A stretch of DNA of 64,000 nt, taken from positions 3,104,001 to 3,168,000 of the forward strand of contig OZ243972.1 of NCBI GenBank assembly GCA_965214705.1, written 5' to 3'. The position numbers were made by a program. Below are positions 39,001-45,000 of this stretch, in pieces. This stretch comes from Alphaproteobacteria bacterium. GTDB taxonomy: Bacteria > Pseudomonadota > Alphaproteobacteria > UBA828. The stretch's first letter is position 1, and each line of letters begins with the position of its first letter.

Positions 39001-42000
39001 TCACCGTGGAGGTGGCCCGCATGCTCGTTGCCGCCGGGGTCGATTTTGGCATTCTTTATGACGCCGAGCACAACAGCGGCAACGACGTGCGGCGTGTCGG
39101 CGAGGAGGGGCTCTTCGAGATGCTCGCGCGCCACAATATCGAAGCGCTCGCCGGCTGCAGCTTCAATCGGATCATGACGACGGACCCCCACAGCCTCAAT
39201 GCATTGCGTCAGGAGTACGCGCTCTATGGAGCCGTCTACCAGGTCGTGCATTACACCGAACTTCTCGTGGAACTCCTGGACGACAACAGGCTCGTTCTAG
39301 AGAAGGCGGCCGGCGAGGTAGTGACCTATCACGACCCCTGCTATCTGGGGCGCTACAACGGCGGCTTCGACGCTCCGCGAGCCATCATCGAGCGGGCCGG
39401 CTACACCCTGCGGGAGATGGGCCGTTGCCGCGAGAACAGCTTTTGCTGCGGTGCCGGGGGCGGTCGCATATGGAGCGACGACAGCGGCGTCGCCGAGCGA
39501 CCGAGCGAGAACCGGATCATGGAAGCGCTCGCTTTGGGCGATGCCAGGGCCTTCGTTGTCGCCTGCCCGAAGGATACGGTCATGTACACGGCCGCGGTCC
39601 AGGCTCTGGGGGTGGAAGACCGAATCGTGGTCCGCGATGTGATCGACCTGATGGAGATTACCCAGCCGAAAAAGCCATTGTAATGCGGCTTGAATCAGCT
39701 CGAAGCGCTGACCATAGCCGACCACGTGGCAATCATGCACCAGGGCGGGCTGCAGCAGGTGTGATCGTCCGAGGACGTCTACCGCCGCCCGGCCAACCGC
39801 TTCGTCGCCGCCTTCGTCGGCGAGCCGCCCGTGAATGTCATCCGGGCCACGGGTAGCGCCGGGCTCAGGATGCGCGAAGGCGAGATCGTGCGGCTCCACC
39901 CGAGAGCGGACCGCATTCGCTTCTTCGATGCGGCCACCGGCGTGGCAGTCGGGCAATCGGTAGGCTCCGGCGCTGACTGAACAACGAAGAGAAGGGACAT
40001 CTCAATGGCGCAGAAGATTATCATCGATACCGACATCGGCACCTACTACGACGATGCGCTCGCCGTCTCCGTCGGCTGCCAGTCGCCGGAGCTGGACCTG
40101 CTGGGCGTCACCACCGTCTATGGCGACACTCACCTGCGCTCGCGGATTGCGCGCAAGGTGCTCGACGTGAACGGCCGGCCCGACGTGCCGGTCGCCCGCG
40201 GCGTGGGTCAGCCGCTCGGCGGCAACTACCTGATGTTCGGCTTCGAGGGCGAAGGCATCCTCGAGGAAGGCGACGGCGATCTCGCCTATCTCGACGAGCC
40301 GGCGCCCAACTTCATCATCCGCAACATCATGGAGAACCCGGGCGAGGTCACGGTGGTCACGCTCGGCGCCGTCAGCAACATGGCGGTCGCCTACGTCCTG
40401 GAGCCGGCGATCAGGGAGAACATCAAGGAACTGATCATGATGGCCGGCGTGATCGTGCCCATCGTGGACGAGAAGGGGATCCGCCGCTCGCCGGTCGAGG
40501 AATACAACTTCAACAACGACCCCGTGGCGGCCCAGATCGTCTGCAACTCAGGGCTACCGATGGTGCTCTGCCCCATCGACGTGACGCTCAAGGTGCCGCT
40601 ACGCGACGACCAGCTCGCGACCATCAACGCCTCCGACCGACCGGTCGCGCAGATGGTGAGCCGCATCCTCGCGGTCTGGCCGCCGCAGGAGCGCCAGATC
40701 TACCTCTCGGTGGGCATCCCTACGGAGCACACCGGCCTCTGGCTACACGACCCGCTGGCGGTGACGCTGGCCCACGACAAGTCCTACTGCGAGATGACCC
40801 GGCTGCACATTTCGGCCGAGTTCGCGCCGACGCCAATCGACCGCGACCTCATCGTTCGGAACGACATCCTGCGCACCATCCCGCGCAAGCTGGAGCCCAA
40901 CATGGATGCCTGCGTGGATGTGGACGCCGACCGCTTCACGGCCTTCTTCACGGAGCGGATCGCCAAGGGCGCCTGAGCGGCGTTCGACAGGTGCGGTTGC
41001 ACGGTCCTCGCCGACCCATGCTCCTCTCCAGGATGCCAAGTTGCCCTTGCCCAGGACGGCGGTCGGCTGGATCACGGCCATGATCGTGATCGACCGGCGA
41101 TCACGATGGCCTGGAGTTGGTGATTGCCCAGTCTCCTCGCGAGTGTTCGGCGCGCGTGTTGGACGCCGATCGGCGTAGTAAGGCATTGATTCGCCCTGAT
41201 TCGGAGGGGTCAAACGCCGCCGCCGAATAACAGTAACTAGGGGAGGAGCTCGGTAACGATCCCTCCTACCCGGCCATGTCCATGATGTCTGCGACCGATC
41301 GCCCAATCCGTTCGGCGGCAGCCTCGATTTCCCGGTCGCCGAGATGGGCGTAGCGCAGCGTCATGCGGACGTTGGAGTGACCCAGCATCCGTGAGACGAC
41401 CGGCACCGGGACGCCGTTCATCACCGCGTGGCTCGCATGGGTATGACGAAGATCGTGAAGGCGGACATCCTCGATTCCGGCCTCGCGGCGAACCCGCCAG
41501 CTCGCCGGCACGACCATCGCGCGGGTGTTGGATGGTAGGAAGTCAGTTCATACGGCTGATTCAAACCCAACTTCAACAGAGGGCCAGGGCGAATTTGTCC
41601 AAGCCTGATTTTTGAGTTCTGCGCTACGAGTTGACCTTGGGTCTGGTCAGCGCGCGCCAACCCTGCTATGGATTGAGGCGACTGGATTCGCGGTGTTCTG
41701 CTGCGGATCGGCTTCGAGCAGGGGGACGGTTTCTACGGTGGATCTTTCCGAGGTCGATGTCGCTGCTGTCCGGCCGGAGGACGAGGCCCGGTTCCGCGCG
41801 CTGATGGAGGGGCATCACTACCTGGGTGCGTCTGCGAAGGTGGGGGCGACGGCGTGGTACGTCGCCCATCGGCGCGGCGAGTGGCTGGCGCTGGCCGTGT
41901 TTTCGGCTGCGGCGCGCAAGTGCCGGGCGCGGGACGAGTGGATCGGCTGGGACTTCCGCACGCAGCACGGGCGGCTGCATCTGATCGCGAACAACGCGCG

Positions 42001-45000
42001 CTTCCTGATCCTGCCGGGACGGGGTGTTCCGAACCTCGGCTCGCGGGTGCTGGGGCTTTGCGCGCGGCGCTTGGCGCGCGACTGGCCGGCCCGCTTCGGC
42101 CACCCCGTGCTGATGCTGGAAACATTCGTGGACGCGGCGAGGTTCCGGGGCACGGTCTACCGGGCGGCTGGATGGCTGGCGGTCGGCCAGACCCGCGGCT
42201 TCCGGCGCCACCGCTCGGGCTATGTCGCCGGCTCGACGCCGAAGCTTGTGCTGCTGCGCCCCCTGGTTCCCGACGCCTGCCGCCGGCTGTCCGCTGCCGG
42301 GCTGGATCGGGAGTTGTGGAAGAAAGGAGTTCCGAGAACCATGATCAGCGCCGCTCAGCAAGAGTCGCTCTACGCCTACTTCAAGGACATCGACGACCCC
42401 CGCACGCGCAAGGGACGGCGGCATTCGCTGCCCAGCGTGCTCGCGCTTGCGAGTGGCGCGACGCTCTGCGGCATGCGAGGCTGGAAGGCCATCTCCGAGT
42501 GGGTCGACGATCTCGGCGAGAAGGCGCTGGCCCGCTTCGGCGTGCGGCTGCGCGACGGGGTGCGCCGGCCGCCTTCGATGTCGACCATCCGCAATGTGGT
42601 GATCCGGGTGGACCCGGACCAGTTGGACGAGGCGTTGCGCAAGTGGCAGGAGGCCCACGGCTCAGGCGACGCGGCGCTTGCCATCGACGGCAAGACCCTG
42701 AGGGGGGCCATCGACGAGGACGGGACCCAGGCTCATGTCATGAGCGCGGTCGGGCACGAGACCAAGGCCACGCTCGCCCAAAAAAACTTCTCCTGAAAGT
42801 CGGGGCCGACGAGGAGACAAAGCGCACCAACGAGATCGGCACCGTGACGGCGCTGGTGGACCTGATCCCGAACATCGCGGGCAAGACGGTCACGACGGAC
42901 GCGCTGCTAACCCAGCGCAAGTTCGCCCGCTACCTGCTCGACCGGGGCGCGCACTTCATGTTCATCGTGAAAGGGAACCAGAAGACCATGCGGGACGATG
43001 TGACGCTGCTCTTCGAAGAGGCGCCGGAGCGTGAGCCCGACTTCGAGGAGGAGGCCGCGCTGTCGCACGGACGCATCGAGCAGCGGGCAATCTGGACGAG
43101 CACGGAGTTGAACGGCTTTCTCGACTTCCCGGGCGTCGGCCAGGTCTTCATGATCGAGCGCTCCCGCCAGGACAAGAAGACCGGCGAGACCGGCACCGAG
43201 ACCGCCTACGGGATCTCCAGCCACACGCCCGGCACGGCCAACGCGCAGAGCCTGCTCGCCCTCAACCGCGGCCACTGGTGCATCGAGAACAGCTCGCACC
43301 ACTGCCTCGACTGGACCTGGGACGAGGACCGCAGCCGCATACGCACAGGCTTCGGCCCCGAGAACATGACCCGCCTGCGGCGCTTCGCCATCGGCCTGAT
43401 CAAGGGCCGGGGGCTCGAGGTCGCCTCGACCGTGCGCAGGCTCGCCCGCAACGTCCGCGCCGTCCTCGACTTCCTGAAAATGACCGGGAACACCCAGCCG
43501 AGGACCGCAAAGCGCGCCGCGCCGGCCTGAACCCCGGCGCCCGGCAAGCCGGGCGCAAAGATCGTACCTGCCCTCGCTCCCGACCACGCCGGTGGCGCGA
43601 TCCATCATGTCGGGGCACCGCCAAATCGCGACGGCACCGCCCGCACCGCCCACACGGTAATGCCAGAACCGTCTGACCGAACCGGATGCTCGGCCAGACC
43701 CCGCCGCAAACCCCGTAACAAAGCCGATCCGCACAACCCGTGGCCAGAACTCAACCGCCTACCAGCCGCTTGGACAAATTTGCCCTGACCGAACCTGCGC
43801 CCAAGTTGACGGCAGGGAGCTGACGATGCCAAGGTTGCCATTTCGCAGCATGCATAAACGGGGTAAAGCTCGCATATGAGGCAAGCAGGTGATGGAAGCC
43901 TCTGGAAGGTTAAGGGTTGGGCAGGCTCTCTCTCGAGAGCCTGCCCAACCCTTTTGAACGAAGCCGCGGGCCACGAGAGGCGAAGTTGAGCTATGTGGAA
44001 AGTGCGCTGATGTCAGCGTCAGGCGGCATCCACCGGCAGCAGAGTTGCGCATAAAATCGACGCTCGCGCCGGTCTTTCGGCAGGCATGCGGGCGCACGCT
44101 GCGAGGACTGAGCGGGGTGTGAGCCGAGGGCTGTCAGCCCGGCTCAAGCGGAGACAGGTTCGGTCGTGCGTCGGCGCTTTGGCGCCGTTGCGCGGGGCCG
44201 AAGCGAGCGGGCGTCTCACGGTTTCCCCCTGTGGGTCGGCGGCAGCGCCGGCGGGCCGCGCGTCGAGCGGGGCTCATGGCGGCGGCGGATTTCGCGGACG
44301 AGGCGCATGACGCCGCCGCAGTGGGGGCAGGCCACGGGCGCGGTGCCGATCTCGGGCTCTTCGTCGGGCTCGGCCTGAGCGCCGTCCACGCTTCCCTCGG
44401 GGGCGGCGCAGCCGAGGGCGCCGAGAGCCTGGCGTGCTCTCTCCAGCGTGCTGGCGCGGCAGCCGTTGGCGAGGATGCCGAAGTAGCGAATGCGGTGCAT
44501 GCCGTCCGGCAGGACGTGCCTCAGGAAGCGGCGGATGAACTCGTCGGCGCTCACGGTGGCGATGCCGTAGCGCGGCTTTCTCTGCCCCGGCGCCTTGGGC
44601 TTTCGGTGGCGGAAGGAGACCGTCTCGCCGTCGAAGGAGACGATGCGGCTGTCGGAGATGGCGATCCTGTGCGTGTAGTGCGAGAGGTACCGGAAGACCT
44701 GCTCAGGCCCGCGGAAGGGCCGCTTGGCGTAGACCACCCAGTCCCTGGCCCGGGCGGCGGCAAGCGTGGCGTGGAACTCGCCGGGATTGGCGAGGTGGGC
44801 GAGGGTGCCGTGGAACTCCAGGTCCCCCCGGCCGTGGGCGCGGGCGAGCTCCTCGAGGAAGAGGCGGCGGAACAGGCTGCCGAGGACCTTGACGGGGGCG
44901 AGGAAGGTGGTGCTCCCCGTCTTCCACTCGCCACTGTCTACGTCGAAGCCCGCGTTGGGCACGACCACGTGCAGGTGCGGGTGGAAGCGGAGCTTCTGAT

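Follow-up and report, generated by a model that had tools for sequence, protein, structure and literature searches.

Programmed frameshifting in the IS1 and IS3 families of insertion sequences (ISs) is textbook knowledge. In IS1, an element of about 770 bp from a family unrelated to the one described here, the shift falls between the DNA-binding and catalytic parts of the transposase, and the upstream-frame product InsA binds DNA. ISAs1 family elements have inverted repeats that start with CAGGG and target duplications of 8 to 10 bp, and canonical members measure about 1.2 to 1.5 kb and have one ORF and no frameshift. IS1 and IS3 use the heptamers A_AAA_AAG, A_AAA_AAA, and A_AAA_AAC more often than any others, and the A_AAA_AAC of IS1 functions without a known stimulator (PMC4066793, in excerpt), while in IS3 members a stem-loop or pseudoknot usually follows after a few bases (PMC4066793, in excerpt; PMC5009743). 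Programmed frameshifting is also listed for IS5 and IS630 (PMC5009743); our literature search found no report of it in the ISAs1 family.

Here we describe an active ISAs1 family IS whose transposase is split over two frames. It lies in a 64,000-nucleotide stretch of an Alphaproteobacteria genome of lineage UBA828 (assembly GCA_965214705.1, contig OZ243972.1, positions 3,104,001 to 3,168,000), referred to below as the window. That the transposase is made by programmed recoding, be it ribosomal or transcriptional, is very likely, and we assign a probability of roughly 0.62 to programmed −1 ribosomal frameshifting. The features of the element, in window coordinates, are as follows.

41585..43787, + strand: the whole insertion sequence, ISAs1 family, long form, 2203 bp, with boundaries common to 19 full-length copies
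41585..41604, + strand: left inverted repeat, CAGGGCGAATTTGTCCAAGC, in agreement with the reverse-complemented right repeat at 19 of 20 positions
41738..42796, + strand: ORF1, 352 aa, with a GTG start at 41738, TGA at 42794-42796, and Pfam and NCBIfam matches
42781..42787, + strand: slippery heptamer A_AAA_AAC in the ORF1 frame, the proposed −1 shift site, read from the sequence (A7 run at 42780-42786)
42787..43530, + strand: ORF2, the −1 frame after the proposed shift, 247 codons plus stop (TGA at 43528-43530), with the rest of the DDE core
42789..42817, + strand: local hairpin, UCUCCU...AGGAGA around GUCG-GGGC-CGAC, starting 1 nt past the heptamer, unsupported as a stimulator
43768..43787, + strand: right inverted repeat, with reverse complement CAGGGCAAATTTGTCCAAGC

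The element is assigned to the ISAs1 family by its transposase model and its ends, and it departs from the family in size and in its split ORF. Like the canonical elements ISAs1, IS1358, and H-repeat, it matches the transpos_ISAs1 model over positions 1-313 of 314 and has 20-bp inverted repeats, both starting with CAGGGC, and 10-bp target duplications; unlike them, it is 2203 bp long, its transposase is extended at the N terminus by about 185 aa of DruA/GNAT domain, and two frames are used. The earlier note had counted 22 copies, and the 50-nt junction window indeed occurs exactly 22 times in the genome, with A7 in all 22 and no fused copy among them. The 19 full-length copies are 99.3-100% identical (0 to 9 substitutions between copies), and 17 are flanked by perfect 10-bp duplications, each different; the window copy at 41585-43787 is the sole copy without a target duplication. 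In a second, unrelated genome, a relative that is 62% identical and combines the −1 layout with A7G is present in 13 copies; these are 99.95-100% identical to one another and show 10-bp duplications at 11 of the 13. Split elements have moved recently in both genomes.

The two-frame organization reported in the earlier note was read directly from the sequence: ORF1 of 352 aa is followed by a −1 frame open to 43530, and the two overlap at CCC AAA AAA C (0 frame, GCC CAA AAA AAC TTC TCC TGA; −1 frame, CCC AAA AAA CTT). Its domain assignments also held. ORF1 matches Pfam DruA (PF14236) at aa 8-155 with 77.8 bits, above the cutoff, and DDE_Tnp_1_assoc at aa 213-303 with 73.5 bits, while the −1 frame matches the DDE domain DDE_Tnp_1. 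The NCBIfam model transpos_ISAs1 (NF033564) runs across both frames: its positions 1-116 align with ORF1 aa 234-350, and 112-313 (of 314) with the −1 frame; ORF1 alone scores 56.1 bits, under the cutoff of 70, and the −1 frame 140.7 bits, over it. ORF1 carries a GNAT-fold DruA/DUF4338 domain at aa 1-185 and a helix-turn-helix (HTH) domain at aa 213-303, together with strands 1-3 of the catalytic core.

Judged from the alignments, residues of the catalytic triad lie on both sides of the shift site. The predicted first Asp is ORF1 D317 (codon 42686-42688), invariant in 28 of 28 sequences, and the other two residues fall in the −1 frame, namely D40 (codon 42898-42900) and the Glu E169 (codon 43285-43287); for either one, 21 of 22 sequences have the same residue. 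The ORF1 AlphaFold model has a mean pLDDT of 76.4. When the natural fused homologue P0027 was modelled (pLDDT 78.8), the shift site fell within strand 3 of a Tn5-like core. The predicted transframe protein has 597 aa, a length taken from coordinates rather than from a built model.

The heptamer stands in X_XXY_YYZ phase of the upstream frame, within the ORF1/−1 ORF overlap. A second, diverged family in the genome (65% aa identity to the window family) is split at the same point at A_AAA_AAG, as the earlier note had described (GGT CAA AAA AAG TCG GCA TGA); of its seven junctions read, four are intact, one is A8 through a G>A change, one is A6, and one is interrupted. A third family in the comparison, with 74% aa identity, has the junction GCG CAA AAA AAG TCG GCT TGA. 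Such runs are scarce, which argues against a chance occurrence: this 7.9-Mb genome of 67% G+C contains only 95 A or T runs of at least 7, and 28 of them are transposase junctions.

To the earlier note the site in other genomes was known through proteins only. Our survey drew 67 junctions out of 84 loci and the window itself; they come from 27 assemblies and were divided at 90% nt identity into 22 lineages. At 51 of the 67 junctions the DNA shows the −1 layout with an A-run of at least 7 in X_XXY_YYZ phase, and the run and layout are kept together in 14 of the 22 diverged lineages and 21 of the 27 assemblies, across lineages of 50-65% aa identity. The intact signal is missing in eight lineages, one with a mutated run (CAAGAAAAG), two with +1 layouts, and five fused. 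One distant lineage (L075, L076) has A8 with a +1 layout. In the 14-lineage alignment, the seven invariant A's form the longest fully invariant block, and the flanks have diverged. Outside the junction, these genes use AAA for only 24% of their Lys codons (55/228), and in two lineages of 71-73% G+C for none of 16. Overlaps between the ORFs shrink to 16, 31, 46, and 79 nt in relatives, always with the A-run inside. Intact sites are homopolymers of A7 or A8 only, with no mixed heptamer. Because the lineages share descent, their phase and 3' G are not independent observations.

In the tree, the split forms make up one clade (SH-aLRT 100), and the eight outgroup rows are all single ORFs of about 600 aa without the A-run. 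Three fused tips nest inside the split clade, with A8, A5, and an erased run, and their proteins read the junction as predicted (QKK|IG, QNK|VG, QKK|TV); in L046, a genomic A8 yields one open frame of 623 codons from stop to stop, or 601 aa if counting begins at the first start codon. The dominance of the ORF1-only form among homologues was likewise borne out: among the best 120 (90%-identity clusters), 110 are at most 425 aa long, 7 have 426-520 aa, and 3 are fused forms (526, 592, and 593 aa) carrying PF01609, one of them named only 'DUF4338 domain-containing protein'. Altogether, the retention of both A-run and −1 layout by 14 of 22 lineages, the split clade, and the recent transposition support the earlier view of a conserved recoding site rather than a mutation.

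The outgroup consists of single-ORF DruA-ISAs1 transposases of about 600 aa, which share the three-domain architecture in one frame; they differ in lacking the A-run and the frame change, in their 36-40% identity to ORF1, and in their inverted repeats. One such protein is named 'ISAs1 family transposase' by NCBI. They occur in the window genome, at 38-40% identity, and, among the matches listed, in 8 to 26 copies in four related genomes. Their presence beside the split copies would suit an explanation in which nothing is programmed and the split copies are dead frameshift mutants mobilized by a transposase in trans, or in which the A7 is an assembly homopolymer error, the more so as many of the other genomes are metagenome-assembled (MAGs), some probably from long reads. 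We consider this highly improbable. Contigs of four public runs from two studies cross the A7 stretch with 0 gaps and without a listed indel; one of these runs has, we presume, an Illumina adapter at a loose contig end. MAG contigs that we take to be short-read from their SPAdes- and MEGAHIT-style names carry the same A7G. Moreover, the window family has no fused copy in the genome, and the inverted repeats of the single-ORF family differ from its own beyond CAGGGC. The persistence of the site across lineages and the short form of 110 of the 120 best clusters also speak against dead mutants or assembly error.

Equally hard to credit is the proposal that ORF2 is started independently, for example by termination-reinitiation at ATGA, giving a split transposase or two proteins with separate roles and no frame change. 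The ORF1 stop does overlap an in-frame ORF2 ATG (GC ATG A) in B-type and L012-type lineages, a classic coupling arrangement, but this ATG is absent in most lineages, including the window (CTGA) and L023, L030, L045, L048, and L054, and the A-run is kept where it is absent. Two separate chains would also break within strand 3 of the catalytic fold and leave the first Asp on a different chain from the rest of the triad. The natural fusions and every outgroup consist of one polypeptide.

We also examined the RNA around the site. The earlier note had found the downstream hairpin no better than shuffles, and our figures agree (MFE −10.9 kcal/mol, z = −0.32, 66 of 200 shuffles at least as stable). 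Over 14 downstream regions compared with shuffles, z ranged from −2.43 to +1.15; no stimulatory structure was evident in 12 of them (z −0.72 to +1.15), only 2 of the 14 had z of −1.8 or lower, and RNAalifold returned 0 consensus pairs over the 14 lineages. The hairpins that can be drawn begin 0 to 1 nt after the heptamer, and the usual spacer between heptamer and structure is longer.

This lack of a ribosome-stalling structure in the shuffle test and in RNAalifold over 14 lineages speaks for a third alternative, programmed transcriptional slippage, in which RNA polymerase would add one A on the A7 in some of the transcripts, and these would encode the fused transposase by normal translation. 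It is a serious but distinctly less probable reading. Every intact site is a homopolymer of A7 or A8, the genomic A8 of L046 gives one open frame, and the A8 with +1 layout of L075 and L076 could not be served by a ribosomal −1 shift; the route itself is known in IS elements (PMC1088944, in excerpt; PMC5009743). On the other side, the runs are held at 7 to 8 across the clade, whereas the published IS survey of this kind of slippage sought runs of 9 (PMC1088944, in excerpt); an upstream hairpin like that of the Roseiflexus IS630 element was not seen, though no search was aimed at it; and the heptamers are those most used in proven ribosomal cases (PMC4066793, in excerpt). The genome encodes tRNA-Lys(CUU) alongside tRNA-Lys(UUU), and the former is expected to reduce shifting on AAG-type motifs (PMC4066793, in excerpt), which counts against the ribosomal reading. 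Conservation does not separate ribosome from polymerase, since one added A gives the same protein in A7G lineages.

Under the preferred reading, −1 ribosomal frameshifting, standard decoding would produce ORF1p, a 352-aa protein with the GNAT-fold DruA/DUF4338 domain, the HTH, the first three RNase-H-like core strands, and the first Asp. A minority of ribosomes, their Lys-tRNA and Asn-tRNA paired with the AAA and AAC codons of A_AAA_AAC, would slip back one base and continue in the −1 frame, adding the part that bears the remaining triad residues, an Asp and the Glu. The resulting transposase of about 597 aa would have the architecture of the ~600-aa single-ORF relatives, and its level would be set by the level of shifting. 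ORF1p probably binds the element ends but cannot cut, and would therefore probably act as a regulator, like InsA of IS1 and OrfA of IS3.

A close mechanistic parallel is IS1 (InsA/InsAB'), with an identical A_AAA_AAC heptamer, a transframe fusion as the transposase, and no established downstream stimulator (PMC4066793, in excerpt); the window element differs in that its shift lies inside the catalytic core, past the first Asp, and in the extra GNAT-fold domain of ORF1. Its relatives share A_AAA_AAG with the IS3 family (IS911, IS150, IS3), where this heptamer is the commonest (PMC4066793, in excerpt), and the logic of a regulator and a fusion transposase matches OrfA/OrfAB (PMC5009743). Unlike IS3 members, the window element has no supported downstream structure, and its transposase fold is Tn5/IS4-like.

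Structural searches indicate that the N-terminal domain of ORF1 has a GNAT fold. With the ORF1 model, Foldseek retrieved the GNAT enzymes AAC(6')-Ib (1v0c, E 7.6e-7), SpeG, and Mom of phage Mu (8bv8, E 5.3e-6), a DNA-modifying enzyme, at target TM-scores of about 0.6, and Mom was the best match of the fused homologue. The DruA domain is itself termed GNAT (PMC10853773, in excerpt), and the PF14236 match at aa 8-155 is the likeness to DruA of the Druantia defence system. ORF1 was rejected as a Druantia defence gene: the PADLOC defence-system models gave no match, and the gene sits within an IS inserted at 22 different places, with no fixed Druantia neighbours because the flanks differ at every copy. 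We regard as doubtful a joint reading in which the split clade would be an unrecognized ISAs1 subgroup, with a recoding site that severs the catalytic core, whose main product is a dead, end-binding, GNAT-bearing protein rather than a spare part. In that case the GNAT domain could modify DNA or protein, by acylation or some other mark, or could act as an acyl-CoA sensor, and in this way link transposition to cell state; Druantia DruA could then derive from this transposase module by domestication.

If programmed frameshifting is true of these elements, ISAs1 joins the IS families known for recoding, with the unusual layout that the triad itself is divided, rather than a DNA-binding domain being parted from a whole catalytic domain. 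The A7C variant of the window genome can tell ribosomal from polymerase slippage by one junction residue. In the databases, 110 of the best 120 clusters are orphan proteins of about 350 aa, called 'hypothetical' or 'DUF4338 domain-containing' where named, and the partner frame is prone to labelling as a fragment or pseudogene. Recognizing the site would allow these elements to be annotated as intact, active ISs and would keep the DruA-like domain from being misread as a defence gene.

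The ISAs1-family element in the window is a 2203-bp repeat, delimited by BLAST of the region against its own genome (7.92 Mb, three contigs, 67% G+C). Its features, and those of a second copy at the window start, are as follows.

Features of the ISAs1-family insertion sequence (IS)
41585-43787: whole IS, 2203-bp repeat
IS ends: inverted repeats of 20 bp, agreeing at 19 of 20 positions, CAGGGCGAATTTGTCCAAGC and CAGGGCAAATTTGTCCAAGC
41738 (GTG) to 42794-42796 (TGA): ORF1, 352 aa, 0 frame
ORF1 aa 8-155: Pfam DruA/DUF4338
ORF1 aa 213-303: Pfam DDE_Tnp_1_assoc
ORF1 aa 234-350: NCBIfam ISAs1 model, positions 1-116
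42781-42787: heptamer A_AAA_AAC, in X_XXY_YYZ phase
-1 frame (ORF2), open until TGA at 43528-43530: Pfam DDE_Tnp_1; NCBIfam ISAs1 model, positions 112-313 of 314
Right untranslated part of the IS: 257 bp, including a 9-bp unit at 43634-43642
Second copy, minus strand, cut by the window start: left end at 1220, ORF1 at 1067-12, A7 run at 25-19

The 25 matching pieces from this search make up 19 full-length copies, 99.3-100% identical, and 3 interrupted or truncated ones. Perfect 10-bp direct repeats, all different, flank 17 of the 19 full copies, with one further copy being one base off. Relative to their own consensus, the copies carry 0-9 substitutions, along with a few indels that lie outside the coding frames. 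These copies were produced by a recent transposition burst. The 9-bp unit GCACCGCCC at 43634-43642, one of two tandem units, is absent from 2 of the 19. Among the full copies, only that in the window (flanks at 41584 and 43788) has no target duplication, and approximately 70 bp from its left end lies a C-terminal fragment of a tyrosine recombinase (83 aa, 41266-41517, minus strand; positions 116-169 of 172 of Pfam Phage_integrase). Together, the fragment and the missing duplication suggest that rearrangement or deletion has occurred at this copy. Long minus-strand ORFs of the IS (41669-42658 and 42910-43734) had no Pfam match.

The earlier note had described a transposase encoded in two frames, with DruA/DUF4338 and DDE_Tnp_1_assoc domains in ORF1 and the DDE domain in the -1 ORF, and both the frames and the domain matches agree with this. 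At the junction, the 0 frame reads GCC CAA AAA AAC TTC TCC TGA, and the -1 frame reads CCC AAA AAA CTT CTC CTG AAA GTC. Alignment of fused relatives with the two halves showed three conserved acidic residues, D317 of ORF1 (28/28) and D40 and E169 of the -1 frame (21/22 each). In the AlphaFold model of a natural fused homologue (protein cluster P0027, 592 aa, pLDDT 78.8), a GNAT-like domain and a helical domain accompany a Tn5-like catalytic core; the first Asp lies on strand 1, the junction (between Q346-K348 and V349) falls within the third strand of the core, and the other two triad residues are downstream of the junction. When the ORF1 product is modeled alone (pLDDT 76.4), the three strands at its end are poorly predicted. 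Because the site splits the triad, and given this core layout and the poorly predicted end of the ORF1 product, neither frame alone can make a working transposase. A 612-aa open frame in the same genome was rejected as a fused copy, as it arises where the loss of 1 nt ahead of ORF1 abolishes an upstream stop.

The A7 run is a consistent feature of the element. The 50-nt sequence around it occurs exactly 22 times in the genome, reproducing the earlier count of 22 identical copies, and each has seven A's. In contigs from four public runs of two studies, the A7 run is spanned without a gap, and no indel is listed anywhere in the element; a loose end in one of the four is presumably Illumina adapter. 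Only 95 A/T runs of at least 7 exist in the genome, 28 of which are junctions of this IS and its two sister families.

Both sister families, B (65% amino acid identity, seven junctions read) and C (74%), carry CAA AAA AAG at the same codon with the same -1 layout; the earlier claim of a second, diverged family split at A_AAA_AAG thus holds for family B and extends to family C. Two more distant families in this genome (36-39%) are single frame throughout, with no A-run. A scan of species-representative genomes yielded 80 loci. Of 67 junctions with both halves side by side, 57 have the -1 layout, and 51 of the 57 an in-phase run of at least 7, so that the slippery site, previously seen in homologues only through their proteins, is now found in their DNA. 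Grouped at 90% nucleotide identity, these form 22 lineages, 14 with an intact signal (A7G in 11, A8G, A8C and A7C in one each, the last being the IS of this genome); among the remaining eight, one is -1 with a mutated run, two are +1, and five are fused. At least one intact junction is present in 21 of 27 assemblies, labeled Alpha-, Beta- and Gammaproteobacteria, Dehalococcoidia and Nitrospira, a host range that is a lead only because binning of IS contigs in metagenome-assembled genomes (MAGs) is unreliable. Locus L026, initially read as same frame, proved to be a standard -1 junction followed by a later duplication. Two loci of a distant relative in an Arenicellales MAG (L075 and L076, near 5725-5740; 29% and 42% identity) both read GGC AAA AAA AAC, and their ORF2 lies in the +1 frame; homopolymer error, another type of recoding and decay are all possible explanations.

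In the alignment of the 14 lineages, every other fully invariant block is shorter than the seven A's, and the bases immediately adjoining them vary. Elsewhere in the same genes, AAA encodes 55 of 228 Lys and CAA 63 of 222 Gln; in two lineages at 71-73% G+C, AAA is used 0/16 times elsewhere, yet the run is kept. Some overlaps measure only 16 nt and have a TAA in the -1 frame shortly upstream of the run, which confines the shift to the run itself.

Among proteins, clustered at 90% identity, 110 of the best 120 clusters are no longer than 425 aa, most commonly with the tail QKKSA, and 3 clusters longer than 520 aa carry the DDE domain; both counts match those of the earlier note, by which the short ORF1 form dominates. 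Two shorter clusters (P0047 and P0109) also read through the site, and the read-through proteins have QKK/IG, QNK/VG and QKK/TV at the junction (slash), matching the prediction for a -1 shift. In a 50%-identity library, the KK and short-tail ending extends down to 43% identity, and more distant relatives read straight through. A maximum-likelihood tree built from 28 rows of the ORF1 region (a quick search with no bootstraps, the long branches L075 and L050 being unsure) gathers every split form into a single 20-row clade (SH-aLRT 100), with all eight outgroup rows being single ORFs. Nested in the split clade are three fused tips, with A8, with A5, and with the run erased by substitutions and one extra base, respectively. 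The fused relative L028 (Paracoccaceae MAG, junction near 4040), in which the run is rewritten as CAA AGG AAG ACC with one extra base, is a natural case of the frameshift fixed as a single, non-slippery frame. Relatives in the same genus have a single-ORF form of 610 codons, with 8-26 copies among the matches listed, and the only two matching records in the plasmid collection are of the single-ORF type. Mobilization in trans by the single-ORF family is unlikely, its inverted repeats differing beyond CAGGGC.

A second genome, the gammaproteobacterial MAG OZ241844.1, contains 13 copies of a 2139-bp relative (62% amino acid identity). Identity among the 13 is 99.95-100%, and every copy has A7G in a -1 layout. 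Ten-bp duplications flank 11 of the 13; in the other two (L038 and L044), the left flank of each is the right flank of the other, as after recombination between two copies.

Altogether, the sequence comparisons argue for programmed recoding at the A-run, of either kind, with a probability of roughly 0.9. Ribosomal -1 frameshifting is the probable route, though held with modest confidence. No downstream RNA structure is supported: as the earlier note had found for the downstream hairpin, folding of 14 regions gave 12 that fold like shuffles, with no consensus fold over the 14 lineages, and an apparent compensatory re-pairing between the IS and family C (GUCGGCUU/GGGCCGAC versus UCUCCU/AGGAGA) was dropped since both hairpins score like shuffles. 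In this the element resembles IS1, which is described in PMC4066793 as using the identical heptamer with no established stimulator. The genome encodes one tRNA-Lys(UUU), one tRNA-Lys(CUU) and one tRNA-Asn(GUU). Transcriptional slippage on the A-run, which in A7G lineages would yield the same protein as a ribosomal shift, is a less likely but plausible source of the fused transposase. Runs in split lineages stay at 7-8; a published survey of slippage in ISs searched runs of 9 (PMC1088944). Only two lineages have an ATGA overlap at which ORF2 could start independently, and the IS of this genome lacks that overlap.

Other elements have comparable features. A different IS at 29098-30341 has two frames joined in a -1 layout at CTA AAA AAA ACG (A8 run at 29640-29647), a context found in several other places in the genome; by eye, its downstream frame resembles a DDE transposase of the IS630/Tc1 type. 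Outside the window, repeated A7 contexts (e.g., C1:23614, C2:24578 and C3:596829, on this genome's three contigs), GCGCGGGGAAAAAAACGC and GCCGCCGAAAAAAATCTTCC, with several copies each, look like candidate recoding sites of further IS families. At 59260-59843, a DruA-like domain sharing 40% identity with ORF1 aa 26-185 is broken by an in-frame TGA (59424-59426); six further copies in the genome, all intact, have Trp at that codon. In relatives, which may be another mobile element using a DruA-like domain, open frames of 1100-1400 codons, present in many copies, end with this domain.

Frameshifting is listed for IS1, IS3, IS5 and IS630 in a review (PMC5009743) whose first 300,000 characters do not mention ISAs1. 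Our literature search found no report of ISAs1 recoding or a DruA-transposase fusion; ISfinder, TnPedia, the supplementary cluster tables of PMC4066793 and GeneTack-type surveys may hold one. The DruA domain is named a GNAT in PMC10853773; identity of the ORF1 domain with DruA of Druantia was rejected, as no PADLOC model matches. Overall, the two-frame observation of the earlier note is real, and its reading as conserved recoding is supported by frameshift anatomy, conservation and phylogeny. The recoding logic of this ISAs1 element is that of IS1 and IS3; unlike in those classic cases, the shift site lies inside the catalytic core, and ORF1 bears a GNAT-fold domain.
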